A stretch of 64,000 nucleotides of DNA from an uncultured Methanosarcinales archaeon (GTDB taxonomy: Archaea > Nanobdellota > Nanobdellia > Woesearchaeales > UBA583), in contig CAZULG010000002.1 of assembly GCA_964621065.1 (NCBI GenBank), positions 61,878 through 125,877 on the forward strand, in the 5' to 3' direction. Both the position numbers and the translations under genes were made by a program. The notes beneath the pieces are model-generated. The model had not been told where the DNA came from. It saw nothing but the letters and a program-made list of their open reading frames with translations, and did no database searches. Positions 5,571 to 55,925 of this stretch are shown in pieces. Each line of letters opens with the position of its first letter. Positions within the stretch are counted from its first letter, which is position 1.

Positions 5571-5587
5571 TTTTCATCTTTTTATAA

Positions 5588-7633: not shown

Positions 7634-7690
7634 TTATTTTAAAAATTTGAAATATGTATGATGGTAGTGTTTAATTGTTGGTTGGAGTAG
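7634..7690. repeat. Direct repeat A: diverged duplicate of the last ~57 bp of the flippase gene
   Basis: ttattttaaaaatttgaaatatgtatgatggtagtgtttaattgttggttggagtag aligns with 8231-8287 with about 6 mismatches. Confidence 0.75.
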
Positions 7691-8192: not shown

Positions 8193-8230
8193 ATTAAATA
8201 TAGTATTTAGAAATATTTAAACGTTTGTAT

Positions 8231-8287
8231 TCATTTTAAAAATTTGAGATATGTTTGGTGGTAGTGTTTGATAGTTGGTTGGAGTTT
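8231..8287. repeat. Direct repeat B: the authentic 3' end of the flippase gene
   Basis: ttcattttaaaaatttgagatatgtttggtggtagtgtttgatagttggttggagtt matches 7634-7690. Confidence 0.75.
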
Positions 8288-11774: not shown

Positions 11775-11813
11775 ACTAATTTATTACTATAAGTTTTCTT
11801 AAATCTTTCTGTT

Positions 11814-12653: not shown

Positions 12654-12655
12654 AT

Positions 12656-13603
12656 TTATTTATACTTCCATTTCTTTAATAAATCTTCTCTAATTAAGCC
12701 TTTCTTATTTAGTAATTCATTTACTTTTTTAGCTTCAATTTGTGTTAAATTTCTTAAATATTTTTTATCTTTCTCACTGACTTCTATTTTTTCATCCTTA
12801 GAATTTAATTTCATAAAAAAAGAATATATCTTTTTCTTTTGATTCTGACTAATAATTTTACTTATAATTTTTTTAATTCTTAAATTGGGATTTCTAATGA
12901 ATTGTTGTAAAAACAAATTTCTAGGAGATTTACCAGGATTTTTATTTTCAAATTTATAATTTTTGAAAAAATCATCATCTACTTCTAGAAAGCTTAAAAT
13001 ATTTTGCACTTCTTTCTTGGTATTTTTTACAAAATCTTCAAATATAACAACTTTAATATTTTTTACAGGAAACAATTTTACATATCTTTTAATTTGTTCT
13101 TCAAATTTAATCATTTCACTATAATACAAAAAAGAAGGTTGTTTACATGCTTTGGGGATTTTTTTTAATTTTTTTCTCTTTTTTTCTAGTCTAATACTTT
13201 TTATTATATTTTTTTGATTTTCATGTCCCATTTTAATTGCATGATTATGCCATGAAGTAAGAAAATTTAAGGGATCTCTTATCATAATTATTATTTTAGC
13301 GTTAGGATTATGGTTATATATTTGTTCTGCTGCAACTCTTGAATATAAATAATTTGGAGATTTATCTCCTAGTAAAACATTAGAATCAATATCTTTGAAT
13401 AAATTGAAGTAATCTGTTTCATTTCTAATATTATAGAACTTATTATGTTTATGATATTTACTTGATTCTTTATGAAAATCTTTACAGAAATAGTTAGGTT
13501 CTTGTAAAACTTTAATTTTATCTGATTCATTCAAATAATTAGCTAATGAGGAAGTGCCTGTTTTTTGAAAACCTACTATAAAAAAGTCCACTTTTTTTTC
13601 CAT
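12656..13603 (-). CDS. Sulfotransferase (second copy, different subfamily)
   Basis: GFQKTGTSSLANYL (PSB loop) and MIRDPLNFLTSWHNH. Confidence 0.7.
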   Translation of the reverse strand: MEKKVDFFIVGFQKTGTSSLANYLNESDKIKVLQEPNYFCKDFHKESSKYHKHNKFYNIRNETDYFNLFKDIDSNVLLGDKSPNYLYSRVAAEQIYNHNPNAKIIIMIRDPLNFLTSWHNHAIKMGHENQKNIIKSIRLEKKRKKLKKIPKACKQPSFLYYSEMIKFEEQIKRYVKLFPVKNIKVVIFEDFVKNTKKEVQNILSFLEVDDDFFKNYKFENKNPGKSPRNLFLQQFIRNPNLRIKKIISKIISQNQKKKIYSFFMKLNSKDEKIEVSEKDKKYLRNLTQIEAKKVNELLNKKGLIREDLLKKWKYK

Positions 13604-13605
13604 TT

Positions 13606-14679
13606 TTATTTATAATAATTATTTATAATTTTAGCCATCTTCTCAACTTGTTTTTCAACTGAGAGAGTCTTAATATATTCAAGTCCATTTTCTTTTAAAT
13701 CTTTGTATAATTCTTTATCTTTATAGAGTAAATTTATTTGTTTTTGTAATTCTCTCCAATTACCTTCTTTAAATAATAATCCATTGTAGTAATTATCAAT
13801 TGTTCTATATGTCCCCCCTGAATCTGCACAAATAGGAACTGCTCCAACAGACATTGCTTCTAATTGAACTTTTCCTTGTTTTTCTCCAAAAGATGGCATC
13901 ACTACAATATCTGCTCGAGAGAGTTTTTCAAAAAATAATTTTCTATTGTATATTTTACCATGAAATTTAATAGTAACATGTTTTGCTAATTTTTGATGTT
14001 GTTTTCTTTGTAATTTATCAAGCCCTATAATGTTTAATTCTTTATTTGAATGCTGAAGTGCTTTTAGTAATAATAATAATCCTTTTCTATTTTCTTCTCC
14101 TCCAACGAAGAATATTTTATTTGTTAATGTATTTTTAATTAATTTTTTGTCTCTATTAAATTCTGAGCAAGAAATAATTTCATATTGATTCAAATGATTT
14201 TTTTGATTTGTGGTTATATTTGAAGTGTAGAATATTAAATTATTCTTGAAAATAAATTTTGAAATTGAATCATAAAATAATTTAAATATTGGATACGTTA
14301 AAAATCTAATTGGTTTTGTGAAGAAGTTTCCATTATGAATATATTGTCCTAAAACATCTCCCTTTACCCAAAAAATACATTTATTATTTCGCAATTTTAA
14401 TCCCCAATAAAGTGCTTTAAAACCCATAGGATAATGCATAAAATATAATGAATTATTTTTGTCTCTAGAAGTATTAAATTCAGAAATTTGTTTTAAATAA
14501 ATGCTACTTTCAATAATTTGAAATTTATTTAAATCCAGTTTATTTTTTTTAAATAAATATCCATAATAATTAATATTAAAATGTTTTGATAATTCATTTA
14601 CAAAATGAGCTCTTTGAATATAATGTTTATTATCATACTTGTAGATTTTATCATTAGTTATATATTTCAACTCTTTCAT
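13606..14679 (-). CDS. Glycosyltransferase family 4
   Basis: VVMPSFGEKQGKVQLEAMSVGAVPICADSGG. Confidence 0.7.
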   Translation of the reverse strand: MKELKYITNDKIYKYDNKHYIQRAHFVNELSKHFNINYYGYLFKKNKLDLNKFQIIESSIYLKQISEFNTSRDKNNSLYFMHYPMGFKALYWGLKLRNNKCIFWVKGDVLGQYIHNGNFFTKPIRFLTYPIFKLFYDSISKFIFKNNLIFYTSNITTNQKNHLNQYEIISCSEFNRDKKLIKNTLTNKIFFVGGEENRKGLLLLLKALQHSNKELNIIGLDKLQRKQHQKLAKHVTIKFHGKIYNRKLFFEKLSRADIVVMPSFGEKQGKVQLEAMSVGAVPICADSGGTYRTIDNYYNGLLFKEGNWRELQKQINLLYKDKELYKDLKENGLEYIKTLSVEKQVEKMAKIINNYYK

Positions 14680-15344
14680 TTTTTTCTACATATATAAAAA
14701 ATATGACTTCCTTGATATTTATTTATGAATCTATCTTTTATTAAAAAATGCTTTTCAAGTAATTTTTCAAATTCTCTTTTTTTCATATTCTTTCTTCCGA
14801 TTTCCCAAAAGTGTTCTTCATGATTAATCTTATTATAAATTGGAATCTTGAATAAAAAATTAAATTTATTCAAGTAAGGAAATTTAATAAAACCATTGAA
14901 AGTTATACCAACATAAGGTATACTTATAATAATATCTTTTTTTGTTACCTTTGATAATTTTTGTAATAATTTATTTAAATCTTTTTTAGGAAAGTGTTCA
15001 AGAACCTCAAATAAACATAAACAATCAAAATCATTACTATCTATTATTTTATCAATTTCATATATATCTCCAACAATATCTGGATTTAATTCTGAATCAA
15101 CATCAAAAGAACTAATATTTACTTTTTTTTTATCAGGAAGCATATTATTATATTTTTTTACCATACTTGGAACAATATCATCTCCAACACCAATATACAA
15201 TACTTTTTTTCCTTCATATTTCATCATTAATTTTACTTGATAAAAATAATCTGTAAACCTTTCAATACTTGAATATTTCTCAAATCTATAATGCTCTTTT
15301 TCAACTTGTTTCTCATTAACAATTCTCATATCACTCTTTCCCAT
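14676..15344 (-). CDS. Class I SAM-dependent methyltransferase
   Basis: VLYIGVGDD (motif I) and CLFEVLEHFP (post-II/III). The likely start is MRIVNEK, a few codons in. Confidence 0.6.
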   Translation of the reverse strand: MGKSDMRIVNEKQVEKEHYRFEKYSSIERFTDYFYQVKLMMKYEGKKVLYIGVGDDIVPSMVKKYNNMLPDKKKVNISSFDVDSELNPDIVGDIYEIDKIIDSNDFDCLCLFEVLEHFPKKDLNKLLQKLSKVTKKDIIISIPYVGITFNGFIKFPYLNKFNFLFKIPIYNKINHEEHFWEIGRKNMKKREFEKLLEKHFLIKDRFINKYQGSHIFYICRKK

Positions 15345-16507
15345 TCTTTAATTATATTTTGTGTTGAAAAGTTTTTAACTCTTTCTAATCCTTTTAGAGA
15401 GTATTGTTCTTTTAAAGTTTTGTTTTCTACTATTTCTTTCATCAATTCAAATAATTGCTTTTCTTCAACATGAGATTTATCTGAAAAAGGCTTAAACAAA
15501 ATACCATACTCTCCATAGTAAGGATATTTAATCTTCTCATCAATTTTTAATTGAGGAGCAAGAATTTCTCGAGGACCATAATTACAATCAGCACTTATAA
15601 CCGGTTTATTTAAATATAATGCTTCAAGCAACACATTTCCAAATCCTTCATATATAGATGAAAATACAAAACAATCGCTTTTTTGAATAAATGAAAAAAC
15701 ATTGTTTTGATTCCCAAGCAAATAAATATTATCTTGTAAATTTAAAGAATTAATTAAATGTTGGAGTTCTTTTCTTAATTTTCCCTCGCCTAAAATAATA
15801 AGCTTACAGTTTTTATTGTAATTTACTAATTTTTTAAAAGCTCTTATTAAATATTTATGAGCTTTTTGTTGTTCTAATCTACCAATTGTAATAAATATTT
15901 TATCATTTTTAGCAAAAAAATTTTTATATTTTGAAGGCAACTTTTCTTTTTTTAAAGAATTTATTTTTTCTAAGTTAACAGTATTATAAATAGTAGTAGT
16001 TTTCTTTGAATTTACACCAACAAATTTTTGTAAGTAATTCTCAACTCCTCTTGATAAAGAAACAACTTTATCAGCTCTATTATATAAAAATTGAGTTAAT
16101 TTTTTGTAAATAATTCTCTGTCTTGAAGGATCATTTCTTTGAGAAACAACAATCCTACTCCTATTTCTAAATAAAATTCTACTCAAAACGAGTGGAAAAT
16201 TTGCTTCTTCCATAAATCCAATAGAAGTATCAATGTTGTGTTTTTTGCAATATTTAGCAATCGCTCTTGCTCTTGTAAACAACTTAGAAGATTGAATCAA
16301 CATATTAGAAGAATCCTTCTCTTTTAACGAAGTATATTTTCCACTAAATTCATATTTTTGTTTCCTATCAAAAAATGTCAAAAAATGAACTTCATACTCT
16401 CTATTATTCAGCTCAGTTCCAATAATTGAAGCAACCCTCTCAGCTCCTCCTCCAAGTTTTAAAGATGAAATAACAATTAAAACTCTCTTCTTCATACTCC
16501 TACACAA
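15326..16507 (-). CDS. Glycosyltransferase family 4
   Basis: GGAERV N-terminal motif and FVFSSIYEGFGNVLLEALYLNKPVISAD. The probable start is MKKRVLIV. Confidence 0.75.
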   Translation of the reverse strand: MCRSMKKRVLIVISSLKLGGGAERVASIIGTELNNREYEVHFLTFFDRKQKYEFSGKYTSLKEKDSSNMLIQSSKLFTRARAIAKYCKKHNIDTSIGFMEEANFPLVLSRILFRNRSRIVVSQRNDPSRQRIIYKKLTQFLYNRADKVVSLSRGVENYLQKFVGVNSKKTTTIYNTVNLEKINSLKKEKLPSKYKNFFAKNDKIFITIGRLEQQKAHKYLIRAFKKLVNYNKNCKLIILGEGKLRKELQHLINSLNLQDNIYLLGNQNNVFSFIQKSDCFVFSSIYEGFGNVLLEALYLNKPVISADCNYGPREILAPQLKIDEKIKYPYYGEYGILFKPFSDKSHVEEKQLFELMKEIVENKTLKEQYSLKGLERVKNFSTQNIIKEWERVI

Positions 16508-20641: not shown

Positions 20642-20784
20642 CCCCGCTTAGCTCAGTGGTAGAGCATTCGGCTGTAAAATGTTATGGTGATAGGTTAATT
20701 AGTAACTTGGATGAAACCAAACCAGTCAATGTTTATAATCATGCAGTACCCGAAGTGTCCCTGGTTCAAGTCCGGGAGCGGGGA
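20642..20784 (+). tRNA. tRNA-Tyr (GUA) with a 71-nt intron at the canonical 37/38 position (intron 20678-20748)
   Basis: Acceptor CCCCGCT/AGCGGGG plus A73, with a C1-G72 pair. D arm GCTC-AGTGGTA-GAGC. Anticodon stem TTCGG/CCGAA, loop CT-GTA-A..C. T arm CCTGG-TTCAAGT-CCGGG. BHB: CTGT(32-35) pairs with GCAG before the 3' site, with 3-nt bulges AA|A and TA|C. Confidence 0.85.
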
Positions 20785-31030: not shown

Positions 31031-31648
31031 TTATCCTCTTGGTTCGTAAAAACTCATCTCAAGTTCAAATCGTCCTTGATTTGTTGGAATGTTTTGAAAA
31101 TCTGCACTAATTCTTGAATAACCTCTTCTTAAATAATAATTTTCATCGCTTGAGTTGAGTGATAAATTGTATTCATTCAAATTAGAAATTGTTTTGTTCA
31201 GATGTGTGTAGCGAACATCATTGCTTGGAATAATACGAAGTGTGTATACTTTTGAACTATGCAGTGGCTCATTATCACCATAACTTGTTGAGTTGAATAG
31301 TTGAAGTAATGTTGAGTTGAGTGTATTTAAAAATGCTGAGCAGACTTCTATTTCATAACCCTGATCAGCGCACGTTAAATTATACTTAGAGTATGATAGT
31401 CCAGTATTATCAACGCAACGATTGAGTAAATCAACTCCGCTAAGTTGAGAGTTTTCAAAACACTGAATTTGTGTTGATTTGAGATGCTGAACTACACTCT
31501 CAACAATAATTTGAGTTTCAGTTTCTAAAATTGAGTCTTGTTCTTCTTGAGAATATACAACTTGAAATTGGGAGTAGAGTAAAAATCCAATTGTGAGAAC
31601 TACAAAAAAAATCATGATTCCAAAAATTTCACCTTGAGATTGTTTCAT
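31031..31648 (-). CDS. Hypothetical exported/anchored protein with possible class III (pilin-like) signal peptide
   Basis: N-terminus MKQSQGEIFGIMIFFVVLTIGFLLYS: a short charged head, a Gly, then about 20 hydrophobic residues. The rest is Ser/Asn/Cys-containing and unrecognised. Confidence 0.4.
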   Translation of the reverse strand: MKQSQGEIFGIMIFFVVLTIGFLLYSQFQVVYSQEEQDSILETETQIIVESVVQHLKSTQIQCFENSQLSGVDLLNRCVDNTGLSYSKYNLTCADQGYEIEVCSAFLNTLNSTLLQLFNSTSYGDNEPLHSSKVYTLRIIPSNDVRYTHLNKTISNLNEYNLSLNSSDENYYLRRGYSRISADFQNIPTNQGRFELEMSFYEPRG

Positions 31649-31673
31649 ATATAAAACATAATGACAATAAAAA

Positions 31674-31681
31674 TTTATAAA
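31674..31681. promoter_or_regulatory. Palindromic TATA box TTTATAAA shared by a divergent gene pair
   Basis: It is central in the 56-bp gap between start codons 31648 (-) and 31705 (+): about 30 and 28 nt from the box centre. Confidence 0.5.
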
Positions 31682-31704
31682 TATATGGTATCATAGTAGA
31701 GTAT

Positions 31705-33798
31705 ATGTTTATTAATATTAATATGTTTAATGTAAAATATTCTCGCTCTTCAATATATGTGCTCTTAATACTATTATTCAAAGTTATTATTATTCAATCT
31801 TCTTATGGAGTAGATAATCCTTCTGCACTGTATCAAGCACCACAAGATTTAGAAGTCTCGATGCAACATAACATTTCTCTTGAGATTAATCCAACAGGTC
31901 AAAGAAGCTCAATTGAATTTTTAAATATTAACTCATTTTATATTCCTGAAGATTTAGGAGAATATCAACGAATTTTGAGTTCATCTTCTGATTATGAAGA
32001 ATTAATTAGTCAAAAAAAACAAAAGTCAGTTATATATAATCAATATCAATTTAGAGAAGAGGATTTGACATCTAATGTTGTTGAAATATCAACTAATTAT
32101 GAAATTCAATCTCAACCTCATTTTCCAAAAATTTATACAAAACAAGAATATCCTATCGTTGAGCGAAGTGATGAGCAATTTGTTCCGTATTTAGAATTTG
32201 CAGATAAAATCAATACAAATGATAAATTACAGCAAAAAGCATTTGAACTTGCACGAGGAGAAGATGATGTATATGTGATTGCTAGTAAAGTTGCAAACTG
32301 GGTACAACAAGAAATTGAATATGATTTATCAACAATTTTTGAAAATCCTGAGCAACGTGCAACTGAAGTGTTTGAATCAAGACAAGGAGTGTGTACAGAA
32401 TTATCTGTTATTTTTGCATCAATGATGAGAACTCTTGGAATTCCGACAAAAATTACAACAGGGTACGCGTATACAACTTCAGAAGAAATCATTGATTTGG
32501 TAGGAAGTAATTGGGGTGGCCATGCGTGGACAGAAGTATATATTAATGGTAAGTGGGTTCCTTTTGATTTAACATACCAACAATATGGATTTGTTGATTC
32601 TAGTCATTTAATTTTACAACGAAATAGTAAAATTGAAGAGTTGGGAGTCCAAGTTGAGATGAGTGCGTTTAATTATGAAATTGTTCCTAATTCATTGCAA
32701 TCAGATTTTGATTTCACAATTCTATCAATGGAGGAGATGTCATCTTCATTTGAAAATGTTGAAGCAACGATGAGTATTAATGAAAATGTTCTCTCTAGTG
32801 GATCACACGTGCTCATTGAAGCAACAATTGAAAATACTCAAGATTATTATCAAACAGTACCTTTTGATATTATATTTCCTCAAGAGATGAGTGCAAAGAC
32901 TCCAACTAAATATGTATTACCGCTTGAACCTAATGAGCAAAGAGATATTCACTTTATTTTGCAACTTCCTGAAGATATGGACGGGTTTTCATTTCCAATA
33001 GCATTGTATACGCGATTTAATAATGTTGAACAAGTCATTGTTAGTACTTCTTCTAATGCTCAATCATTTACTTATGAGGAATTGGCCGAATTATTACCTG
33101 AAGAAGAACCTAGTGGAGCGCAGGAGAGTGATGATGAGCTTGATAATGTTGTTGAAAATTCCAATATTACTCGAGAAGTAGAAGATACAACAAATGATGA
33201 GGAAGAGAGTAGCGAGTTAAATACATCATATTTAGAAGATGTTGATTTCAGCTCAGTTTGTAATTTAATTCAAGAAGATTTTGATTTTTTTTTGAGTTGT
33301 AATATTTCGCAATTTTCAAATAATGAAGATATTTTATCAACAGAACTATGTTCTTTAGAGGATTGTAGTTCAGTTGTATTTAGCTCTGAATCAAATTCTC
33401 AAAACATTACTGTGAAAACTGGTTATAGTCCAACATTTACAATGAAAGCAAATGTGAGAGGTAGTTATGAAGAAGAGGAGTTCACTATTGACCTGCCTGA
33501 GCCAAAATCTTTGAAAATGACATATGAAGCAGGAGATGGGTTTTTAGAAGTGAGGTCTCAAATGGATGAGAGTGATATTTTTCATTTAATTGAAGTTGAA
33601 GTTGCAAATGCAGTATTAAGACTTGATAATACAAAACAGCGACAAATCATTAATTTAGAGCCTGGTGTATATACTATGCAAATTACTTATGATTATTTTA
33701 ATCAAGAAGTTGATTCTCAAGAAATTGAAATAGAAATAACTCAATCTCAATCATTACTTGATAAAATAAAGAAGTTCTTTACTTCACTATTTTCATAA
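31705..33798 (+). CDS. Secreted transglutaminase-like cysteine protease-fold protein
   Basis: Signal-like N-terminus. Transglutaminase core RQGVCTELSVIFASMMRTLGIP (Cys) .. GGHAWTEVYINGKWVPFDLT (His, Asp). Acidic Ser/Glu/Asp linker and C-terminal beta-rich region. Confidence 0.75.
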   Translation: MFININMFNVKYSRSSIYVLLILLFKVIIIQSSYGVDNPSALYQAPQDLEVSMQHNISLEINPTGQRSSIEFLNINSFYIPEDLGEYQRILSSSSDYEELISQKKQKSVIYNQYQFREEDLTSNVVEISTNYEIQSQPHFPKIYTKQEYPIVERSDEQFVPYLEFADKINTNDKLQQKAFELARGEDDVYVIASKVANWVQQEIEYDLSTIFENPEQRATEVFESRQGVCTELSVIFASMMRTLGIPTKITTGYAYTTSEEIIDLVGSNWGGHAWTEVYINGKWVPFDLTYQQYGFVDSSHLILQRNSKIEELGVQVEMSAFNYEIVPNSLQSDFDFTILSMEEMSSSFENVEATMSINENVLSSGSHVLIEATIENTQDYYQTVPFDIIFPQEMSAKTPTKYVLPLEPNEQRDIHFILQLPEDMDGFSFPIALYTRFNNVEQVIVSTSSNAQSFTYEELAELLPEEEPSGAQESDDELDNVVENSNITREVEDTTNDEEESSELNTSYLEDVDFSSVCNLIQEDFDFFLSCNISQFSNNEDILSTELCSLEDCSSVVFSSESNSQNITVKTGYSPTFTMKANVRGSYEEEEFTIDLPEPKSLKMTYEAGDGFLEVRSQMDESDIFHLIEVEVANAVLRLDNTKQRQIINLEPGVYTMQITYDYFNQEVDSQEIEIEITQSQSLLDKIKKFFTSLFS

Positions 33799-41969: not shown

Positions 41970-42698
41970 ATGGTTGTAAAAACACAAGCATATTTGTTAG
42001 AAAAAAGAGAACTCTCACCTACGACAATGCACTTTATATTTAAATGTGAAGATGATTTTATGTATAAAGCGGGTCAATTTATAAATTTTATAATTGATAA
42101 ACAAGATTCCACAAGACCGATGAGAAGAGCATATTCAATTTGTAGTGCGTATAATTCAACTCATCCACGAGAGTTTGAGTTATGTGTTAAACTTGAAGGA
42201 GAAGGAGAATTCACACCTCTTTTATTCAATTCTTCAATTAATGATTCGTTTAATGTAATGGGTCCTTTAGGTTTGTTTAAACTACACTCCAATACTCAAG
42301 AAGACGAGATTATTAGAGATCAAGTATTTATTGGAGCAGGTTCAGGAATTGCACCTTTAAGATCTTTTATTAGAGAACTTCTTATCAATCAAAACTTTAC
42401 TCGCAATGTGACGTTACTTTTTGGAGCTAGAAGTGAGGAGGAAATATTATTCAAAGATGAGCTTGATAAATTGGAGCAAGAGTATTCAAATTTCAATTAC
42501 ATAATTACACTCTCGCGCCCAAGTGCTAATTGGGATGGTTTAACAGGCTATGTGCAAGATCATTTAACTGAAATAGGAAATATTTCTTCTTCTCAAATAT
42601 ATATATGTGGAAGAACGAAGATGGTTGATGGTGTTCATCACAAATTAGATGAGCTAGATATAGCAAAAGAACAACGACACCATGAAAAATTTGGTTAA
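41970..42698 (+). CDS. Ferredoxin-NADP reductase-like FAD/NAD(P)-binding oxidoreductase
   Basis: FAD motif RAYSICS (RxYS) and NAD motif GAGSGIAPLRS. No Fe-S cysteine cluster. Confidence 0.7.
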   Translation: MVVKTQAYLLEKRELSPTTMHFIFKCEDDFMYKAGQFINFIIDKQDSTRPMRRAYSICSAYNSTHPREFELCVKLEGEGEFTPLLFNSSINDSFNVMGPLGLFKLHSNTQEDEIIRDQVFIGAGSGIAPLRSFIRELLINQNFTRNVTLLFGARSEEEILFKDELDKLEQEYSNFNYIITLSRPSANWDGLTGYVQDHLTEIGNISSSQIYICGRTKMVDGVHHKLDELDIAKEQRHHEKFG

Positions 42699-42789: not shown

Positions 42790-43956
42790 TTATTCTCCAA
42801 TAATTTCAAGTACTGCTTTTGTTAATTTCTCATCAAGTGATTTTTCATTTAATTTTGATATGAAGTATAATGATACTATGTGATCTTTAACATTAGTTTT
42901 ATGACGAAGTGGTTTGTGTGTGTCACTCATTCCTCTTAAGTATTTATCTAAATCGAAAAATACTTCAGGCGTCATCCATCGAAGTGTCTCAGTATAATAT
43001 CGAAGTGTATTTCTAGTCTCTTCAATCCCAACTCTTTTAATTAGATATTCTAGCCAACTCAAAATAATTACAAGTGCATTTGTATTATTTTTCAAAACAG
43101 TAAGTGGAACTGCATCAGCAGCTGCCTCTTCAATATTGAGTGTATCTAATTCAAGTAAACTTGAGGATATTTTCTTCTCTTCTTTTTGCTCAGGCGCAAT
43201 AGCTATAATCTCAGGATTTGCTTCTCTTTGAGGGATTCTCATTTCTGAAGACTTAGTATTTTCCACGTTATCCTTGAGTTTAAATTCATCATCATCTCTT
43301 TGTAGTACAGTTCCATTTGAATTTGAATCTTCTTGAGGAATTTCAATTTCTAGTGGTTCATTATTATTTTCTTCAATAAGTTCTTCTTTTTTTTGTTCTT
43401 GTGAAACTTCAACTGAACCCACTTTTTTTGGCAAATCTTCTTGTGAGACAAATGGGTTGTATTGATTATTGATTAATTCATAAAGTGATAAAAATTGAGA
43501 CATGTTGTTATCAAACTCTTTAATTTTAGAGTCGTTCTCTTTTGATTTTTTATCAAGCTCTTCAACTCGTGTTGTTAATGAGTTCACTGAGTTTTCAATT
43601 TTTTTAATATCAGTTACAAGTCCTGTAATTCTCTCATTAGATTCTTTCATCTCTTTGTGCATCTTCATCAATACTTCACTCACAGACTTCTTGTTTCCTC
43701 CTCCCACAGGTTTTAGACTAGCCTGTTGCTGGTTTGAAAAATTATTTTGCTGGTTTTGTGATTGTTCTTGTTTAGTACTCTCTTGTAACTTTTGCTCAGA
43801 AGAGTTTGAATCTTGGTTTTGTTGCACTTGATTATTATTATTATTATTATTATTATTTTGTGTATTTGCAACAGGCACAGATGATGTCTGTGTTTCTTTA
43901 GACTTAGCTTTGTTATTTTTCCCACCTAATAAAAATTGAATTATTCCTAATGCCAT
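42790..43956 (-). CDS. Coiled-coil protein with C-terminal archaellum ArlD/ArlE (FlaD/E)-like domain
   Basis: N-terminal amphipathic MALGIIQFLLGG, a Gln/Asn-rich tract, and a coiled coil. The C-terminal ..LVIILSWLEYLIKRVGIEETRNTLRYYTETLRWMTPEVFFDLDKYLRG matches my memory of the FlaD/E family signature. No HMM check was run. Confidence 0.45.
   Translation of the reverse strand: MALGIIQFLLGGKNNKAKSKETQTSSVPVANTQNNNNNNNNNQVQQNQDSNSSEQKLQESTKQEQSQNQQNNFSNQQQASLKPVGGGNKKSVSEVLMKMHKEMKESNERITGLVTDIKKIENSVNSLTTRVEELDKKSKENDSKIKEFDNNMSQFLSLYELINNQYNPFVSQEDLPKKVGSVEVSQEQKKEELIEENNNEPLEIEIPQEDSNSNGTVLQRDDDEFKLKDNVENTKSSEMRIPQREANPEIIAIAPEQKEEKKISSSLLELDTLNIEEAAADAVPLTVLKNNTNALVIILSWLEYLIKRVGIEETRNTLRYYTETLRWMTPEVFFDLDKYLRGMSDTHKPLRHKTNVKDHIVSLYFISKLNEKSLDEKLTKAVLEIIGE
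43831..43857 (-). repeat. Perfect (AAT)9 trinucleotide run encoding poly-Asn
   Basis: attattattattattattattattatt on the + strand. It is in frame in the ArlD/E-like gene (codons 34-42). Confidence 0.9.
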
Positions 43957-44020
43957 TTGTTAATTTATTCATTATTATATTTTATTTATAACTGTGTCAC
44001 TACTTCATCATTTCTATTAC

Positions 44021-44701
44021 TTATTGTAATCTACTCAGAGCTGAGTTGATTCTATCAATTCTTGTTTTAATGATCTCTTCTTCAAAATTATCAGAATCTT
44101 CTCTTTCACTACTAAATGTTGTTATAAACTTTTGAGTGTTTTGTTGGGAATTTGACTGCACAGGTAAGTTGATATGATCAATTGAAGAATTTAGTGAATT
44201 TTCAACTTCTGAGATTTGTTTAAACATTTGGTACTGTGATGAATACACTTCTTCTTGCATATTATCTATTTTTTGATGTATTGATTTTATCTCAAGTGAT
44301 TGATTAGTGAGTTCGTGATTAATTGATTCAAGTTGTTCTAGAATTTGTCTAGATTGAGCATTTCGACTAGCAATCAAGTCTTGAGAAAGCCGCTCAAACG
44401 TTTGTCTTATTTTGGATAAAAATTCATCTTGTTGGGTGTGAAGTTTTTTAGTCACTAATGATTCAATATCATTAAATGCGTGCTTTCTCAGTAACGAGAG
44501 TTCATCACGAACATCTTGTAAAAATGTGAGAATCTCAATATTACTTGCTTGTGAATCATTGAGTTGGTTAAGTGATTTGAGATTTGAATAATTCAATGAT
44601 GCGTAAGGCACATACTTTTCAAGCTCAGAGTTTAATTTTGAGAGTTCTTTTTTTATTGAATTTAATTCTACCATTTTTATTTTAATTACTTTTAACTTCA
44701 C
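44021..44701 (-). CDS. Coiled-coil protein (FlaC/ArlC-like?)
   Basis: Heptad-rich and Gln/Ser/Glu/Leu-dominated, with no TM. The start is more likely MVELNSIKK at 44674, which removes the overlap with the upstream gene. Confidence 0.45.
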   Translation of the reverse strand: MKLKVIKIKMVELNSIKKELSKLNSELEKYVPYASLNYSNLKSLNQLNDSQASNIEILTFLQDVRDELSLLRKHAFNDIESLVTKKLHTQQDEFLSKIRQTFERLSQDLIASRNAQSRQILEQLESINHELTNQSLEIKSIHQKIDNMQEEVYSSQYQMFKQISEVENSLNSSIDHINLPVQSNSQQNTQKFITTFSSEREDSDNFEEEIIKTRIDRINSALSRLQ

Positions 44702-45212
44702 TAATCACTTTTGTCTGTGAAGATGAATCTTTAGGAGTACTTATATTCTCAGAGGTTTGAGGAGGAGTGGAAGGGATTTTAAGTTCTTCTTGATTTTTTT
44801 TCTCACCGCTCCAACTTGTAGGAATTGTTTTTTCATAATTTGTGATTGTTAAATTTTGAGAATTTTTCATTTCTTTACTTAGTTTTTTTAACTCATCTTG
44901 CAGAGAACTAACTTTAGTATTAATCTCACTAATCTCATCTGCAATTGCTAAGAGTTTATCTGTGCCCTCTTCTCCACCCTCAGTTTCAATAGACTCGTCT
45001 GTGTCTTTAGATTTTTCATATTCTTTTGCTTGCAAAAAAACATCAAGTAATCGTTGCATTGTTGTGTGAATTTCTTCTAAATATCTGGCTTGGTCTTCTT
45101 CTCTTTTTTTATTGTTGAGCGATTCAATAAGTATACTTTGTTTTAACTTCAATGATTCAAATTCTTTGATTAAATCAATGTCTTCACTTAAATGTTTTGA
45201 CGTACTAACCAT
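44682..45212 (-). CDS. Coiled-coil protein with Ser/Thr/Pro-rich tail
   Basis: 176 aa. Helical heptads (..LQDELKKLSKEMK..), then ..IPSTPPQTSENISTPKDSSSQTK. Confidence 0.45.
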   Translation of the reverse strand: MVSTSKHLSEDIDLIKEFESLKLKQSILIESLNNKKREEDQARYLEEIHTTMQRLLDVFLQAKEYEKSKDTDESIETEGGEEGTDKLLAIADEISEINTKVSSLQDELKKLSKEMKNSQNLTITNYEKTIPTSWSGEKKNQEELKIPSTPPQTSENISTPKDSSSQTKVISEVKSN

Positions 45213-45254
45213 ACTAGCACTTAAAAATTAAATTAAATAAATGTTAGTAACTCC

Positions 45255-45887
45255 TCACGAATTGAGAAAACCAGAGCATTGAGAATTTTGTGATTGTGTG
45301 AGAAGATGGAATGATATTTCAAACTTATTTTGAGAGTTTTCTTTTTCATGTTTGTGCTCAATTTTGAAAATAAGTCGTTGAACTTCATCATTATTATTAG
45401 AGTTTATAATTTCAAGCGATGAGTCTTGAATATTTCTATATTGATTTATATCTTCTATATTATCTTTTGTAGATATTCTTTGTTGAATTGAAGATGATGT
45501 AATAGAGTTACAAATAAAGCATGCTGATTGTGTGTTTAAACGTGATAAGAACGTATCTTGATTACTTAAAACTTGGGCTTTTGTGTTACATATTTCAATC
45601 TCTTTTAAGAGTTGTTCCTGGTTTTGAATAGAAATGTTGTTACTTTGACATTTTTGATTAATTAGACCTTGAATAGTTTGCTCATTTTGATTCACCCCAA
45701 ATTGATCGAGTCTAGACAATAGCGAAATACAATCTTGATTATCAAAATATTTATCACTTGATTGCATCGTCGTGAAGAAAAACATTAAAAATATGATAAT
45801 GATTATTGCTCCTAAGATCAATACTGCTAAAAAATCAAAACTTAGTGCTTTTTTTTCATTATATTTAAAATTAGTTTTTATGTTCAT
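45255..45887 (-). CDS. N-terminally anchored hypothetical protein (possible pilin/archaellin-like signal)
   Basis: MNIKTNFKYNEKKALSFDFLAVLILGAIIIIIFLMFFF, then a Cys/Gln/Asn-rich extracytoplasmic part. Confidence 0.4.
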   Translation of the reverse strand: MNIKTNFKYNEKKALSFDFLAVLILGAIIIIIFLMFFFTTMQSSDKYFDNQDCISLLSRLDQFGVNQNEQTIQGLINQKCQSNNISIQNQEQLLKEIEICNTKAQVLSNQDTFLSRLNTQSACFICNSITSSSIQQRISTKDNIEDINQYRNIQDSSLEIINSNNNDEVQRLIFKIEHKHEKENSQNKFEISFHLLTQSQNSQCSGFLNS

Positions 45888-45930
45888 TATTAATTTGTGA
45901 TAATTGTATTAATTTAATAAAAAAAATTAT

Positions 45931-46734
45931 TTATTCTTCGCTCATCTCTTTCCATGCAACTTCAAAAAGTTGCTGAAGTGCTTGAGCAAAAAATGGTGTG
46001 TTAACCCATACTCCTATATCATATGCTGGATAGATATCTTTGTCATGTAGTGTCATGAAGAGAACTTCTTCTCCATCAATTACACAAAATCGCGCTTCAA
46101 TTTCATCAGTAAAGCGAATCTGGGCAACATCTTTTAATTCTTCTTTAATTTTTACTGCTTTATCAGTTTTAGGAGTGGCCATTTTAATTGAAACTCCTCT
46201 CTCAACTAATACTTCAAATACTCCTCGAAGTGCTTCAACCTTTCGTAAAAAACCAGTTGATGTTGTCATTAAAATAACTTCATCTTCTGCATTTTTAACC
46301 ATTGCTTCCAAATGGTTGTATAAGTTATATCTACCTTTCAATGCTCCCGATAAATCACTAGGTTCAACAAGTTGAATTCCTTGCTCGTGAAGTTGCTCTA
46401 GATCTTGTAAAACTTCGCTATCTCTTAGTGATTCGAGTTTTCCAATTTTTTCTTCTGATTTTTCAGCAACTCTTTTCTTAACTCTATCAATAACATCTTT
46501 TGGAGAAATTGCAATATATTTGATAGGTTTTCCAAGTTTTACCATTACAAATCCTTTTTTTTCTAGTGATTCTAATACATCGTATGTTCTAGATCTAGGG
46601 ACAATTGCAAGGTCACTTAACTCGCCAGCAGTTGCAACTTTTCGTGATAATAAAGCAGTCCAAATTTTAACTTCATATAAATTTAAACTGAAATACTGTC
46701 GTAGCATGTTTAGGAATTCTTCTTTAACAATCAT
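45931..46734 (-). CDS. TrmB-family transcriptional regulator
   Basis: wHTH LNLYEVKIWTALLSRKVATAGELSDLAIVPRSRTYDVLESLEKKGFV plus a TrmB-type C-terminal domain. Confidence 0.8.
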   Translation of the reverse strand: MIVKEEFLNMLRQYFSLNLYEVKIWTALLSRKVATAGELSDLAIVPRSRTYDVLESLEKKGFVMVKLGKPIKYIAISPKDVIDRVKKRVAEKSEEKIGKLESLRDSEVLQDLEQLHEQGIQLVEPSDLSGALKGRYNLYNHLEAMVKNAEDEVILMTTSTGFLRKVEALRGVFEVLVERGVSIKMATPKTDKAVKIKEELKDVAQIRFTDEIEARFCVIDGEEVLFMTLHDKDIYPAYDIGVWVNTPFFAQALQQLFEVAWKEMSEE

Positions 46735-51029: not shown

Positions 51030-54000
51030 TTATTTTCTTCCAAATGCAAACCAGGAGAAGAAATCATCTTCCTCTTTTTCATCTTCTAATTTTTTCTCTC
51101 GAATTTCTTTTGATCGCTCTTGTGCAACTTCTTTTCCTTTTGAAATTGGAACGCTCTTCCACGAATCTTTTAAATAATTACAATCACGAATAATTGAAGA
51201 ATTCAACTGTTTAAACGCAGGAGTTGTAAGTGTACTAGCGTATGTTTTTGAGAGTCTCTTTTCTTCATCACCAATGAACTTTTGAATTCTCTTTTTCACT
51301 TGCTTTAGTTCATCTTGAAACTCTGATTTTGTTGTTGCTTGTTGATTTGCACTGTAAAAGTGAGTAAGTAATTCAATATAAGATTTCTCATACACCTCTC
51401 TAAATTCTAAGATGAATTGTTTATATTCTTCAAATTCATCAACACTTAGTGTTGTATTTTTAATCTCTTGTACTTTTTGCTCAAACTCTCTAAATTCAAC
51501 ATACTTCTCTAGTTGTGTTCTAAGTTGCTCTAATTCTTCATGTACTTGGCTTTGTGTTTGCTCAATTACTTCTTGAGAAATTGTTTGAGTCGTTGTTGTC
51601 ATCTCTTCTTGAAGTGAGTTGAATGTTGAATCAACACGCTCTTCTAATTGAGTAATCTCTTCTTGAAGTGATTGAATGTTTGATAGATCTTCAATTTCTA
51701 TTTGTTGATTATCAACTCTTCCTCTCAACTCATCTACAGTTTTAATGACTTCTTCAAGTGCTGAGGAGTCAAACTCGACTGAATTTTGAATTGTCTCAAT
51801 ATGACTCTCAACTCGCTCTTCAACACTCTTCTCAATTGTATTTGTCACTTCTTCACGAATCTCCTCTCTAAACTCTGTATTTGACTGCTCTGATTGTTCA
51901 AGTGAATTATACTGCTCAGCTAACTCTTCTAATTGTTTTTGAACTGAGTTGAGTTGAGTTGTAATTTCATCTTTACTCATAATTTTTTGATCAAGTACTG
52001 AGACTTCGTGTTGCATTTCTTCTCTCATCTCACTTGAGACTTCTTCAACTGAGTGTGTAACACTCTCAATTCTCTCTTGTAGCTCTTGAATTGTTTGTGA
52101 TAATTCTTCAACCTCTTCTTTTTGTGCGTACTCCTCACTATCAAAGTTTTGAACTTCATCACTATCAACTTTTTTAGCGTCAAGTTCTTGCACTCTCTGC
52201 TCAATTGCTTCAAGTTGAGATGTCAATTCTTTGAGTTGTTTTTGCAAAGCTTCTTCATCAACTTCTTGAGGAATTTCAAGTGCGTTGAGTTGTTCTTGTA
52301 ACTCGCTCACTTGCTCTTGAAGAGGTTGAATACTCGCATTCACACTCTCTTGTTGCTCTTCAATTACTTCACTCACGTGAGTTTCAACTGTTGAGTCTAC
52401 TCGTTCTTGTATTGATGAGTCTACTTGTTCAATTTGTTCTTGTAATTGTGTAATTTGTTCATTAAAAGAGTTGATTTGTTCTTGAGTTTTTCTCACTTCT
52501 TCAACCATTTCATCATCTTGCTCTGATTCATTTTGTTCAATTTGTGTAGATAATTCCTCTGTTTTCTCTTGAATTGTATTAATAAGTTCTTGTAATTCTT
52601 CAATTTTCTCAGAGTACTCTTCAACTTCTTCACTGAGTTGAGACTGTGTGACAAATTCTTCAGTATCGAAATCTTGAACTTCATCACTATCAACTTTTCT
52701 CTCATCCATTGACTCAACATCTGTTGAAAGGGTTGTGATTTTCTCTTGGAGTTCTTCAATTGTGTCTTGAAGTGTTGTCACTGATTCTGCTGAAGCGAAT
52801 AATTCTTCATTAATGTAGGGAATTTCAATTGAGTTGAATTGCTCTTGAAGACCCCTGAATTCTTCTTTAAGTGATTGCATTTGCTCTTCAATATCTCCTT
52901 TTTGCTCTTCAATTGTCTCACTCACTTGAGTCTCAACAGTTGTTGTAATTTTCTCCTCAACACTCAAATCTAATTGTTCAAATTTCTCTTTAATCTCATC
53001 AAATTCAACTCGCTGCGCTTTATCTGCATCAAGTAAAGAGATATTTGTATCATTTTGCTCAACTCGCTCATATAATTCACTAATTTGTTCTTCATATGTT
53101 TGAATTTGTGTACGAAGTGCTTCAATTTGTTGGGTTATATCTTCTTGCGCTTTTTTCAATGTTTCAATTTCTTTATCATCTTGCTCTGATTCTTGAGAAG
53201 TATTCTCTTCAACTCGAGTTGATAATTGCTCAGTTGTTTGATGTAATGTATCAATGAGTTCTTGTAATTCTTCAATTTTCTCAGAGTACTCTTCAACTTC
53301 TTCACTGAGTTGAGATTGTGTTACATACTCATCAGTATCGAAATCTTGAACTTCATCATTATCAACTTTTCTCTCATCCATTGACTCAACATCTGTTGAG
53401 AGTGTTGTGATTTTCTCTTTGAGTGAATCAATTTCTTCTTGGAGCTCACTTAAAGATTGTGTTGATGCGAATAATTCTTCATTAATGTGGGGGATTTCAA
53501 TTGAGTTGAATTGCTCTTGAAGTGATTGTACATCTTCATGAGTTGCAAATTGTTCTTTTAATTCATCAAATTGTTTATTTGAATTTTCTTCACTTTGACT
53601 CATCTGCTCAACTCGCTCATCTAACTCACTAATTTGATTAATAATATCTTCAAGTTGGGTTTCAAGTGATTGAATGGACTCTTGCAATCTAGAGGTATCT
53701 TCTTGAGATTGTAGCTCTTCAATTTTCTCGCTCACTGTTTCAACTCGCTCATATAACTCTTCTCTACTTTCTTGAATTTGTTGTGTAACAATTTCTTGTG
53801 AAACAACAGGTTCTGTATGCTCTAACTCTTCAAGTTTCTCTTGCACTGAATTGAGAGATGTTTGAAGTGAAATAATTTGATCAGCCATTTCATCAACTGT
53901 TTCAATATTTGCTTTTGCAGAATCAACTGCTGAGAGGTCTGAATCAAGTGTTTCAATATCTGTGTCTAAACTCTCAACTTTTGAGCGTACTTCTTCAAAT

Positions 54001-55925
54001 TGTGAACTCAACTCATCCACTTGCTCATTGAGCTGAGAAACTACTTCTTGTGTTGCATATTCATCTCTATTTTCTTCTTGAGTTTGATTATTTAATTGTA
54101 CTTCTTTTAATTGTTCAATTTCGCTACGCAAATTCTCAATACTCTTTTCAAATTCTTGAAGCTGACTCATTTGAGATTGTATTTCTTGAGTTGTCTCATT
54201 ATTTGTCTTTGCAGAATCAACTGCTGAGAGGTCTGAATCAAGTGTTTCAATGTCTTTGTCTAAACTCTCAATTTTAGACTGGAGTTCTTCAATAATATTT
54301 TGAGTTGCATATGAGTTTTCAATTGCTTCAACACGCACAGATAACTCTGTAATGTCTTCATCAAGTCCTTCTTTGAGTGCAGATTTCTCAGTTGCATCTT
54401 GACTCAGTGTTGTTAGCTCATCTTTTAACTCGCTCAATGATTGCTCTACTTGAGAAATTGTAGTATTTACTTCTTCAACGCGTGAATTTAAATCATCTTT
54501 TGAAACAAAAGATTCTGTGTCAATATCTGAGACTGTGTTAATAACTTCTTCAAAAGAATCTTGAACTTGTTGAATTTTTTCTTCAACTTCTTCTTTTGTT
54601 GCTAAGCTTTGAGAATCAAATTCTTCTCGTAAATATTCAAAATCTTGAACAATCTCTTCCATTCGAGTTGTAAGTACTTCTACTTGGTTTTGAAGTGGCT
54701 CAATATCAATATCAGCTTGCTCTTGAATTTGTGGTATCTCAATTGCATTTACTTGTTCTTGTAACTCTTTGAGTTGAGTTGTAAATGCTTCAACATTTGG
54801 AATAAGTTTATCTTCAACTTCTTGTTCTAAAAATGAATCTAAGAGTTCAATTTTCTCACTGTTCTCATCAATTTTTGTCTCAATTGAGGTAACATCTGGA
54901 ATTTCAATTTCATTAAACTGTACTTGAAGTGTTTGAATTTGAGAATCTTGTGAATCAATACGCTCAACAATAGGTTCAATTTCATCACTCAAATCAGTTT
55001 TTGTAACAAATTCATCTCGCGTAGATAATTGTTGAGCAGAATCAACTAACTGATTAATTTGTTCTTCAATTCCTGATAATTGTTCTTCTCCAACTTTTTG
55101 CTGAATTTGAGCGTCCATAACTTCAATTTGTGATTGTATCTGCTCAATAATTGAGATAATTTTTTCATCAGATTGGCCTGTTGCCAAGTTTTCGTATGCT
55201 TCTTTGAGCATTTCAACTTGTTGTTGTACAATTCCAACTTGATTTGCACTATATTCGTGAACATACGTTTTGAACTCTTTGAGTTTTGAGAGAATTTGAG
55301 ATATTTTAGAACTATATTCATCAGTATGTACATATTGAACACTAAACTCTTCTTGAAGAGAGGATCTAAGTTCTTGCTCAACTTCATCTCTAATTTCTTG
55401 TTTTATCTCTTCTTTAATATTTTGAAGTATTGTTCCTTTAATTTCTTCAATTGCTAATTTTTCTTTTGATAAAAACTCATTTCGAATTGTGGTAAATTGA
55501 GACATAATCTCTCGAGCAACGTCTAATTTTTGAGAATCAATTTCATTTTGCACATTCGAAAGTTGTGTATAAATGTGTTGAGATTGAGAATGAATATATT
55601 CTTTAATTGAATCAAATGAGGGAGTGTTTGAAGAATAATTAGATAATAATTCAATTTTTTGTTTTAACTCTAACAATTCTTTTGAATGTTCAAATACATT
55701 TGCATCAACTGAGTCAAGTTGCTCTTGTAGTTGTAATAGCAACTCATCTTTACTCTTAGTACCTTCTTCTAGAGAATTTAGAGTTGCAAAAATATCGTTA
55801 ATATTTCTATTTTGAATAACTTGTTCTTGCTCTAACGATTCAACATCTGATTTAACTTTATCAAACGCTCGTTGTGCCCTATCTTCAATAGTATCTACAA
55901 ATTCAGGAGTTTTTAGTGTTTTCAT
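51030..55925 (-). CDS. Giant (1631 aa) acidic coiled-coil protein, no enzymatic motif, aromatic C-terminal peptide
   Basis: Uninterrupted ORF with a TTTATAAA box about 27 nt upstream. Glu/Gln/Ser/Ile/Leu-rich heptad-like sequence throughout. Five LQxQxNx(I/L)EIP punctuation motifs. It ends ..EDEKEEDDFFSWFAFGRK. No Walker, TM or signal motif seen. Confidence 0.85.
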   Translation of the reverse strand: MKTLKTPEFVDTIEDRAQRAFDKVKSDVESLEQEQVIQNRNINDIFATLNSLEEGTKSKDELLLQLQEQLDSVDANVFEHSKELLELKQKIELLSNYSSNTPSFDSIKEYIHSQSQHIYTQLSNVQNEIDSQKLDVAREIMSQFTTIRNEFLSKEKLAIEEIKGTILQNIKEEIKQEIRDEVEQELRSSLQEEFSVQYVHTDEYSSKISQILSKLKEFKTYVHEYSANQVGIVQQQVEMLKEAYENLATGQSDEKIISIIEQIQSQIEVMDAQIQQKVGEEQLSGIEEQINQLVDSAQQLSTRDEFVTKTDLSDEIEPIVERIDSQDSQIQTLQVQFNEIEIPDVTSIETKIDENSEKIELLDSFLEQEVEDKLIPNVEAFTTQLKELQEQVNAIEIPQIQEQADIDIEPLQNQVEVLTTRMEEIVQDFEYLREEFDSQSLATKEEVEEKIQQVQDSFEEVINTVSDIDTESFVSKDDLNSRVEEVNTTISQVEQSLSELKDELTTLSQDATEKSALKEGLDEDITELSVRVEAIENSYATQNIIEELQSKIESLDKDIETLDSDLSAVDSAKTNNETTQEIQSQMSQLQEFEKSIENLRSEIEQLKEVQLNNQTQEENRDEYATQEVVSQLNEQVDELSSQFEEVRSKVESLDTDIETLDSDLSAVDSAKANIETVDEMADQIISLQTSLNSVQEKLEELEHTEPVVSQEIVTQQIQESREELYERVETVSEKIEELQSQEDTSRLQESIQSLETQLEDIINQISELDERVEQMSQSEENSNKQFDELKEQFATHEDVQSLQEQFNSIEIPHINEELFASTQSLSELQEEIDSLKEKITTLSTDVESMDERKVDNDEVQDFDTDEYVTQSQLSEEVEEYSEKIEELQELIDTLHQTTEQLSTRVEENTSQESEQDDKEIETLKKAQEDITQQIEALRTQIQTYEEQISELYERVEQNDTNISLLDADKAQRVEFDEIKEKFEQLDLSVEEKITTTVETQVSETIEEQKGDIEEQMQSLKEEFRGLQEQFNSIEIPYINEELFASAESVTTLQDTIEELQEKITTLSTDVESMDERKVDSDEVQDFDTEEFVTQSQLSEEVEEYSEKIEELQELINTIQEKTEELSTQIEQNESEQDDEMVEEVRKTQEQINSFNEQITQLQEQIEQVDSSIQERVDSTVETHVSEVIEEQQESVNASIQPLQEQVSELQEQLNALEIPQEVDEEALQKQLKELTSQLEAIEQRVQELDAKKVDSDEVQNFDSEEYAQKEEVEELSQTIQELQERIESVTHSVEEVSSEMREEMQHEVSVLDQKIMSKDEITTQLNSVQKQLEELAEQYNSLEQSEQSNTEFREEIREEVTNTIEKSVEERVESHIETIQNSVEFDSSALEEVIKTVDELRGRVDNQQIEIEDLSNIQSLQEEITQLEERVDSTFNSLQEEMTTTTQTISQEVIEQTQSQVHEELEQLRTQLEKYVEFREFEQKVQEIKNTTLSVDEFEEYKQFILEFREVYEKSYIELLTHFYSANQQATTKSEFQDELKQVKKRIQKFIGDEEKRLSKTYASTLTTPAFKQLNSSIIRDCNYLKDSWKSVPISKGKEVAQERSKEIREKKLEDEKEEDDFFSWFAFGRK
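52585..52850. repeat. Intragenic long repeat, copy A (266 bp)
   Basis: Near-identical to 53257-53522 at an in-frame offset of 672 bp. Encodes ..LQEQFNSIEIPYINEELFAS..KITTLSTDVESMDERKVDSDEVQDFDTEEFVTQSQLSEEVEEYSEKIEELQEL. Confidence 0.9.
53257..53522. repeat. Intragenic long repeat, copy B (266 bp)
   Basis: Partner of 52585-52850. The flanks are long and nearly identical; the central ~60 bp is more diverged. Confidence 0.9.
53914..53977. repeat. Intragenic repeat, copy A (64 bp)
   Basis: tttgcagaatcaactgctgagaggtctgaatcaagtgtttcaatatctgtgtctaaactctcaa has 2 mismatches to 54208-54271, at an in-frame offset of 294 bp. Confidence 0.9.
54208..54271. repeat. Intragenic repeat, copy B (64 bp)
   Basis: Partner of 53914-53977. 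Encodes ESLD(K/T)DIETLDSDLSAVDSAK. Confidence 0.9.

Follow-up and report, generated by a model that had tools for sequence, protein, structure and literature searches.

The window analysed here is a 64-kb stretch of DNA (bases 19,339-83,338 of the 199,353-bp contig JBKHCA010000001.1) with a guanine plus cytosine (GC) content of ~30%, which originates from the metagenome-assembled genome (MAG) GCA_046542085.1 of a 'Candidatus Nanoarchaeia archaeon'. It carries a block of five genes on the minus strand (42790-46734; all positions are those of the whole window), the last of which, arlCE, encodes a protein of 388 amino acids (aa) with domains of the archaellum proteins ArlC (FlaC) and ArlD/E (FlaD/E). 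A first-pass annotation described the block as an orphan ArlC/D/E-like coiled-coil operon under a TrmB regulator and offered two explanations for it, a fragment of a dispersed archaellum locus or an ArlCDE-derived scaffold recruited to another envelope or polar structure. The comparisons presented below make it very probable that arlCE is a genuine archaellum scaffold gene, detached from motor genes that are located elsewhere in the same genome. The genes of the block, the domains of ArlCE and the gene following the block are listed here.

45931-46734, minus strand: TrmB-family gene, 267 aa (PF01978, PF11495)
45255-45887, minus strand: F18, 210 aa, N-terminal transmembrane helix and extracytoplasmic domain, six invariant cysteines
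44682-45212, minus strand: F32, 176 aa, coiled-coil segment at about residues 84-121
44021-44674 or 44021-44701, minus strand: F33, coiled-coil protein, 217 aa (ATG start at 44674) or 226 aa (GTG start at 44701)
42790-43956, minus strand: arlCE, 388 aa, ArlC (FlaC)-ArlD/E fusion (PF04659 and PF05377)
43921-43956, minus strand: codons of the N-terminal motif of ArlCE, residues 1-12 (alignment of 35 sequences)
43447-43683, minus strand: FlaC-type coiled coil of ArlCE, residues ~92-170 (PF05377, AlphaFold2, heptad periodicity)
42793-43110, minus strand: ArlD/E domain of ArlCE, residues 283-388, predicted to be all-helical (PF04659, alignment, AlphaFold2)
41970-42698: convergent oxidoreductase gene (FAD_binding_6/NAD_binding_1)

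As described in the first-pass annotation, the five genes are co-directional and tightly spaced, with intergenic gaps of 43, 42, 7 and 64 nucleotides (nt) in the order from the TrmB gene to arlCE, and the block ends against the convergent oxidoreductase gene. The stop codon of F32 is located 7 nt ahead of the ATG of F33; with the GTG start of F33, this gap is replaced by a 20-nt overlap with F32. The intergenic regions were inspected by eye for promoter- and terminator-like motifs. A T9 run follows directly after the stop codon of the TrmB gene, and TATA-like elements can be found upstream of the TrmB gene (TTTATAAATA), upstream of F18, and ~35 nt before the ATG of arlCE (TTATAAATA), all of which are weak evidence in DNA with 30% GC.

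The 388-aa protein matches the Pfam models Arch_fla_DE (PF04659, residues 283-370, 68.8 bits with a threshold of 21) and FlaC_arch (PF05377, residues 117-170, 34.2 bits with a threshold of 27.8). As both domains score above the gathering thresholds, the protein is an ArlC-ArlD/E fusion (ArlCE). The C-terminal block that had been recognized as belonging to the FlaD/FlaE family is thus confirmed by Pfam, and the poly-Asn/Gln tract is present as well. A family search covering 5.8 billion proteins returned 133 matches to ArlCE; among the matches listed, 118 of 120 possess both the FlaC and the FlaD/E domain. The named ones belong to Woesearchaeota and Nanoarchaeota, and several of them have already been labelled FlaD/FlaE by NCBI or the Joint Genome Institute (JGI).

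In the alignment of this family, an invariant N-terminal motif is followed by a low-complexity linker, the FlaC coil, which ends in FLSLYELINNQYNPF, and the C-terminal ArlD/E domain, which hardly varies and contains most of the invariant columns. The N-terminal motif reads M-x-L-G-x-I-x-F-L-x-G-G-K, with M1, F8, L9 and G11 invariant and G12 nearly so in the 35 sequences aligned. AlphaFold2 predicts a short helix at residues 3-9, a single long helix at residues 92-165 and five helices at residues 291-387. The long helix is the only confident part of the model (predicted local distance difference test, pLDDT, 77-90), and heptad periodicity in the FlaC segment exceeds that of the shuffled control. 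The five C-terminal helices are predicted with low confidence: the pLDDT averages 54 over the model and lies at 52-66 in the C-terminal domain, values at which searching for similar folds would not be meaningful. When the ArlCE profile was compared with PDB sequences, only generic coiled-coil matches and no solved ArlD/E domain came up. Proteins of the ArlC/D/E family are usually described as lacking a membrane anchor. The N-terminal motif of ArlCE could be a short hydrophobic or amphipathic helix and, possibly, a membrane-targeting element.

No archaellum motor genes are located alongside arlCE, exactly as the first-pass annotation had stated. Hidden Markov models (HMMs) built from the ArlG/F-like, ArlH, ArlI and ArlJ proteins of related loci yielded no match when the window was translated in all six frames, and the Pfam annotation of its gene-like open reading frames (ORFs) of at least 90 aa revealed no arl, pil or che family. 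The Pfam content of the window comprises ribosomal proteins, RNA polymerase subunits, a glycosylation island and further housekeeping genes. Furthermore, no arl, pil or che family was detected with Pfam in the ~9-kb flanks on either side of the window (81 kb of the contig covered).

With one genome scanned for each GTDB species, 18 arlCE loci were obtained, the ORFs of which were clustered jointly with those of five further loci. Two types of gene order were distinguished around arlCE. Type B is represented by 15 distinct loci of more distant Woesearchaeota and Nanoarchaeota, whose ArlCE is 42-50% identical to the protein of the window. Here, arlCE is followed by a gene for a 153-175-aa archaellin-fold protein (PF01917, 63.7 bits; best NCBIfam match ArlG, NF052591, 67 bits) and, in all loci but one contig-truncated locus, by a gene for an ArlF-like protein of 390-1284 aa, usually with LamG/DUF2341, the N-terminus of which is homologous to the ArlG-like protein (hhalign, 97.9%). 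In eight of the 15 loci, arlH is located less than 10 kb further on (NF052589, 228 bits, cut-off 215), accompanied by ArlI in seven of these eight (NF058587, 698 bits, cut-off 550) and by ArlJ in six (NF004704, 369 bits). In the remaining type B loci, the gene run is interrupted or reaches the contig end; in the complete HK-STAS-Nano-1 genome, arlH and arlI are present on the same chromosome at non-adjacent positions.

In the Woesearchaeal cluster arlCE-arlG-arlF-arlH-arlI-arlJ (L008, L010, L012-L015, L018, L020; e.g., L012 10001-18463), arlC/D/E, a hallmark of Euryarchaeota, occurs together with an arlG that precedes arlF, as has been described for Crenarchaeota. Its ArlF-like protein is usually a fusion with LamG_3/DUF2341, and there is no archaellin gene within arl loci of this cluster type. 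Woesearchaeota had been reported before to carry archaellum genes, FlaD among them (PMC8407392).

Type A consists of the window locus and three loci of relatives (L005, L006 and L007), whose ArlCE is 53-58% identical to that of the window. The gene order in this subclade is L11, DUF4234-like membrane protein, TrmB, F18, F32, F33, arlCE, continuing beyond arlCE with the convergent oxidoreductase gene, L15 and the S13/S4/S11/RpoD operon. The arlCE gene of type A is surrounded by housekeeping genes, and the whole of this neighbourhood is syntenic. In L005, F32 and F33 are missing, and the L11 and DUF4234-like genes are not found at that position. As for the five-gene synteny in relatives, on which the first-pass annotation had made its proposal depend, the order is kept in all four subclade loci, but F32 and F33 are absent from one of them (L005), and the block occurs in none of the 15 other arlCE loci. 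In the alignment, the ArlD/E block hardly differs between the subclade and the clade with arl clusters. With its C-terminal block nearly unchanged, the ArlCE of the subclade looks functional.

The motor genes of the subclade have been moved, not lost. A search with the type A ArlH (L006) retrieved an 83%-identical protein, MFP4402624.1, encoded on contig 14 of GCA_046542085.1; it scores 234 bits with FlaH and 231 bits with ArlH, both above the equivalog cut-off of 215. Its gene is followed by genes for a 116-aa transmembrane-helix protein, an MJ0538-family protein and the thermosome. Cluster membership led to MFP4402326.1, a FlaI-type ATPase of a 'Candidatus Nanoarchaeia archaeon' encoded on a 125,621-bp contig, which corresponds to ArlI (FlaI, 676 bits, cut-off 550). 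The products of neighbouring genes are a lipoprotein (MFP4402325.1), ArlJ (MFP4402327.1, locus tag ACLFPL_03770) and a second T2SSE-type ATPase (MFP4402331.1). The accessions MFP4402325-4402331 fall between that of the EF-2 encoded on the window contig (MFP4401610.1) and those of contig 14 (MFP4402621/MFP4402624), and because of these contiguous accessions and the shared organism name the arlI-arlJ contig was taken to belong to the same assembly as the window. The arlI-arlJ DNA was read from a Logan contig of SRR11308339, on which arlI, arlJ and two adjacent genes encode products identical to the NCBI proteins.

The dispersal can also be seen on a single piece of DNA in a relative. A search with a type B ArlI retrieved a 72%-identical protein encoded on the 1.09-Mb contig ctg52608 of ERZ25074195, which also carries the arlCE of L005, and the gene for ArlJ adjoins it. 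On this contig, arlCE is located at ~870 kb, arlI-arlJ at ~650 kb and arlH at ~429 kb, i.e., the four arl genes are 200-440 kb apart. The ArlH of the subclade is 63-72% and its ArlI 72% identical to the cluster-encoded orthologues.

The arl cluster of the subclade is thus present in at least three pieces, each with a clade-restricted membrane or extracellular partner: F18 (together with F32 and F33) at arlCE, a ~110-aa transmembrane protein at arlH and a ~310-aa lipoprotein at arlI-arlJ. Throughout the scattered subclade, arlH is followed by the gene for the conserved transmembrane-helix protein (~100-116 aa; L026 5767-6117), and arlI is preceded by the gene for the conserved lipobox-containing lipoprotein (~300-315 aa; L031 8925-9872, L029 8601-9533, L030 1123-2028). 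Neither of these two was found in the cluster-type loci. The LamG-ArlF protein was not recovered in the large divergent ORF that precedes arlH in L006 and L007, which is a different one. Besides, the second T2SSE-type ATPase (767 aa) of the arlI-arlJ contig in the MAG is longer, and its gene lies 3.8 kb beyond arlJ together with that of a 348-aa protein (L031 17139-20526); the two may represent a second type-IV-filament system.

F18, F32 and F33 have no above-threshold match in Pfam or NCBIfam. Their orthologues are 26-34% identical over most of their length (27-30% in the case of F33), compared with 53-58% for ArlCE; the three are fast-evolving lineage-specific proteins. The F18 family is tiny and clade-restricted, with 11 matches among 1.84 billion representative proteins; its invariant cysteines are C53, C80, C100, C123, C126 and C204, and the AlphaFold2 model has a pLDDT of 72.5. 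F18 was examined as a homologue of ArlF/G or of pilins and rejected, as judged from both profile comparison (hhalign, probabilities of 0.8% with the ArlG-like and 1.1% with the ArlF-like clade profiles) and fold (best Foldseek match in PDB with E = 0.23 and TM <0.3). It shares only the N-terminal transmembrane topology with ArlF, ArlG and archaellins.

The first-pass annotation's 'ArlC/D/E-like coiled-coil operon' goes too far, because the 388-aa protein is the only ArlC/D/E-like one of the block; F32 and F33 have no FlaC or FlaD/E match. Both contain heptad-periodic segments above the shuffled control; however, with respect to PF05377 and PF04659 no Pfam match was obtained at E <= 1. A paralogous relationship to FlaC was likewise rejected (hhalign against the ArlCE alignment, probability 0.3% for both), as was kinship with the ~430-aa protein encoded divergently from arlCE in cluster-type loci (hhalign, <=0.5%). 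For F33, a sub-threshold coiled-coil match to the FlaX model was observed (E = 0.3). F33 is present in L001, L006 and L007 and missing in L005.

The 267-aa protein encoded by the first gene of the block belongs to the TrmB family, as had been proposed: it contains the winged-helix domain PF01978 (65 bits, threshold 25.6) and the C-terminal domain PF11495 (28.6 bits, threshold 22.2). Its best NCBIfam match is TrmBL2 (NF041141), with 80.6 bits far under the equivalog cut-off of 530. The protein is ~95% identical across the four type A loci, compared with 83-84% for L11, 69-79% for L15 and 53-58% for ArlCE. Orthologues with 78-89% identity are encoded on JGI metagenome contigs (L033-L040) among other neighbours, namely between a gene for a ~150-aa protein that has a transmembrane helix at its N-terminus and, on contigs that extend far enough downstream, a convergent gene for a ~140-aa protein. 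In the five of these contigs with enough flanking sequence, no F18, F32, F33, arlCE or any arl gene was found nearby, and none of the 15 cluster-type arlCE loci contains the TrmB gene. It probably forms a separate transcription unit. The conservation of the protein exceeds that of L11 and L15 and suggests a role that is global or chromatin-like, as in TrmBL2. The chromatin-associated TrmBL2 of Thermococcales is nearly equal in length (264 aa compared with 267), aligns over the full length (residues 3-262) and, like the window protein, has no sugar-binding extension; the score, however, remains far from that of an equivalog.

In non-crenarchaeal archaea, ArlC/D/E constitute a cytoplasmic scaffold or ring around the ArlH/ArlI/ArlJ motor. 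By analogy with these proteins, ArlCE is most likely a cytoplasmic scaffold around ArlH/ArlI. We propose that an ancestral arlCE-arlG-arlF-arlH-arlI-arlJ cluster was broken up in the subclade, where arlCE now lies in a ribosomal-protein neighbourhood, with arlH and arlI-arlJ on other contigs of the same genome, and that the four genes upstream would be neighbours of arlCE through shared ancestry within the subclade. As expected from the established role of ArlCDE, ArlCE would oligomerize via its FlaC coiled coil and dock on ArlH/ArlI via the conserved C-terminal ArlD/E domain; in addition, attachment to the membrane may be provided by the invariant amphipathic helix at its N-terminus. ArlCDE has been described as a scaffold that binds ArlH (PMC8978795).

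The dispersed-locus explanation of the first-pass annotation agrees with these data: arlCE of the sister clade leads arl runs, and the same MAG encodes ArlH, ArlI and ArlJ on other contigs, which amounts in substance to an ordinary though rearranged arl gene set. Three points count against this reading. The ArlJ protein MFP4402327.1 reaches 402 bits and thus stays below the NCBIfam equivalog cut-off of 550, though ArlJ is its best match; the 125.6-kb contig was assigned to the same assembly by organism name and contiguous accession numbers; and no ArlG, ArlF, archaellin or ArlK was found in the ~200 kb of subclade sequence, which represent a part of each genome. The second explanation, according to which an ArlCE-derived scaffold was recruited together with the three proteins encoded upstream to some other envelope or polar structure, independent of the archaellum motor, would account for the physical separation of arlCE from all motor genes, for the clade-specific membrane and coiled-coil proteins preceding it, and for the failure to see ArlG/F in the available subclade sequence. 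It is nevertheless highly improbable, because the same MAG still encodes ArlJ as well as an ArlH and an ArlI that score above the equivalog cut-offs. Furthermore, the identity of the ArlH and ArlI proteins of the subclade to their cluster-encoded orthologues suggests that the interactions between the partners have been kept, the ArlD/E domain has hardly changed in comparison with cluster-encoded ArlCE, and the adjacency of the upstream genes is explained by the inherited synteny of the entire ribosomal-protein neighbourhood.

If arlCE is accepted as a detached archaellum gene, the roles of its upstream neighbours have still to be weighed. F18, F32 and F33 could be clade-specific archaellum accessories co-expressed with arlCE, with F18 replacing the ArlF/G stator and F32/F33 being additional parts of the ring, for example. 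This would fit the tight co-directional spacing, the translational coupling of F32 and F33, and the presence of F18 ahead of arlCE, either next to it or at a distance of two genes, in all four subclade loci; the topology of F18, with an N-terminal transmembrane helix and an outside domain of ~150 aa, is ArlF/G-like, the arlH and arlI pieces likewise have clade-specific membrane partners, and ArlG/F were not found in the subclade sequence examined. We consider it unlikely, however, since the three proteins resemble neither ArlF/G, pilins nor ArlC in sequence or fold and are much less conserved than ArlCE, since L005 keeps arlCE without F32 and F33, and since the TTATAAATA box suggests that arlCE has its own promoter; moreover, the search for ArlF/G covered only a fraction of each genome. 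An extension of the same idea, in which all the clade-restricted partners of the arl pieces form a replacement stator and envelope-anchoring set, belonging either to a re-engineered archaellum or to a non-swimming filament driven by ArlHIJ/ArlCE in an episymbiotic archaeon, appears quite improbable to us. Similarly, there is little probability that the TrmB-family protein is dedicated to the transcriptional regulation of the four genes that follow it, although TrmB-family proteins are transcription regulators and the gene lies immediately upstream and co-directional in all four subclade loci. An identity of ~95%, where L11 and L15 reach 69-84%, is a constraint far above that expected of a local regulator; the orthologues in the five JGI contigs have no arlCE nearby, the 15 cluster-type loci have no TrmB gene, and the T9 run behind the TrmB stop codon precedes a TATA-like element before the next gene. 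The wording 'under a TrmB regulator' is therefore without support.

Among known systems, the detached ArlCE is closest to euryarchaeal ArlC/ArlD/ArlE (FlaC/D/E), of which natural fusions are known as ArlCE in Haloferax volcanii and ArlDE in Pyrococcus. FlaC_arch and Arch_fla_DE are present in the same order as in a CE fusion, the protein is soluble without a true transmembrane segment, and arlCE of most relatives lies in a run with arlF/G-type stator genes, followed in about half of the cases by arlH/I/J. In contrast to the euryarchaeal systems, arlCE is detached from the cluster in the window subclade, and the ArlCE family described here has the invariant N-terminal hydrophobic helix and long low-complexity linkers. 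The relatives differ also in the order CE-G-F-H-I-J, where G precedes F as in Crenarchaeota, and in the fusion of ArlF to a LamG/DUF2341 domain, and no che genes were seen in the loci examined, which are parts of genomes. Crenarchaeal ArlX is presumed to be an analogous scaffold around ArlH/ArlI and also contains a coiled coil, but ArlCE has no sequence relationship to it, and ArlX possesses a genuine transmembrane anchor.

The novelty is modest and consists in one subclade with scattered arl genes, each piece of which has a clade-specific membrane partner; that arl genes are scattered in some DPANN genomes is a finding of small importance. Nonetheless, as a result of such scatter, locus-based detectors of archaella and type-IV filaments, as well as judgements made from single contigs, under-call motility in MAGs of this kind, and no new function should be proposed for an 'orphan' arlCE until the whole genome has been searched. 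For archaellum specialists, the mixed layout of the Woesearchaeal cluster, the invariant N-terminal helix of ArlCE and a TrmB-like protein conserved beyond ribosomal proteins may be of interest.

Several other features of the window were recorded. The region 10000-16500 is a glycosylation island with a GC content of 22-24%, encoding sulfotransferases, GT1/GT4 glycosyltransferases, an FkbM methyltransferase and a polysaccharide flippase. At 31031-33798, a gene for a 205-aa protein with a pilin-like hydrophobic N-terminus (KQSQGEIFGIMIFFVVL) is divergent from a gene for a 697-aa secreted transglutaminase-core protein, and this pair is conserved in a relative (L006 16979-19997). At 51030-55925, a 1631-aa coiled-coil protein without any Pfam domain above threshold is encoded. 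It has a weak match (E = 5e-5, 16.8 bits) to the HMM of the ~430-aa protein that is divergent from arlCE in most cluster-type loci, which probably reflects coiled-coil composition only.

The Pfam match 'OapB' at 5211-5570 was considered as an archaellum-linked polar-cap organiser and ruled out, the Pfam description being 'origin-associated protein' (PF09846). The gene adjoins that of a small GTPase (5588-6211). The GC skew changes sign at ~6-8 kb, and an ORF-poor stretch (7330-8230) contains a 38-nt direct repeat with 89% identity between the copies, which are 597 nt apart; the region 4346-8260 may be a replication origin. Finally, an Rfam tRNA match extends over 143 nt at 20642-20784 (51 bits) beside tRNA-Asp and tRNA-Lys. 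It is not called by ARAGORN and is probably an intron-containing tRNA.

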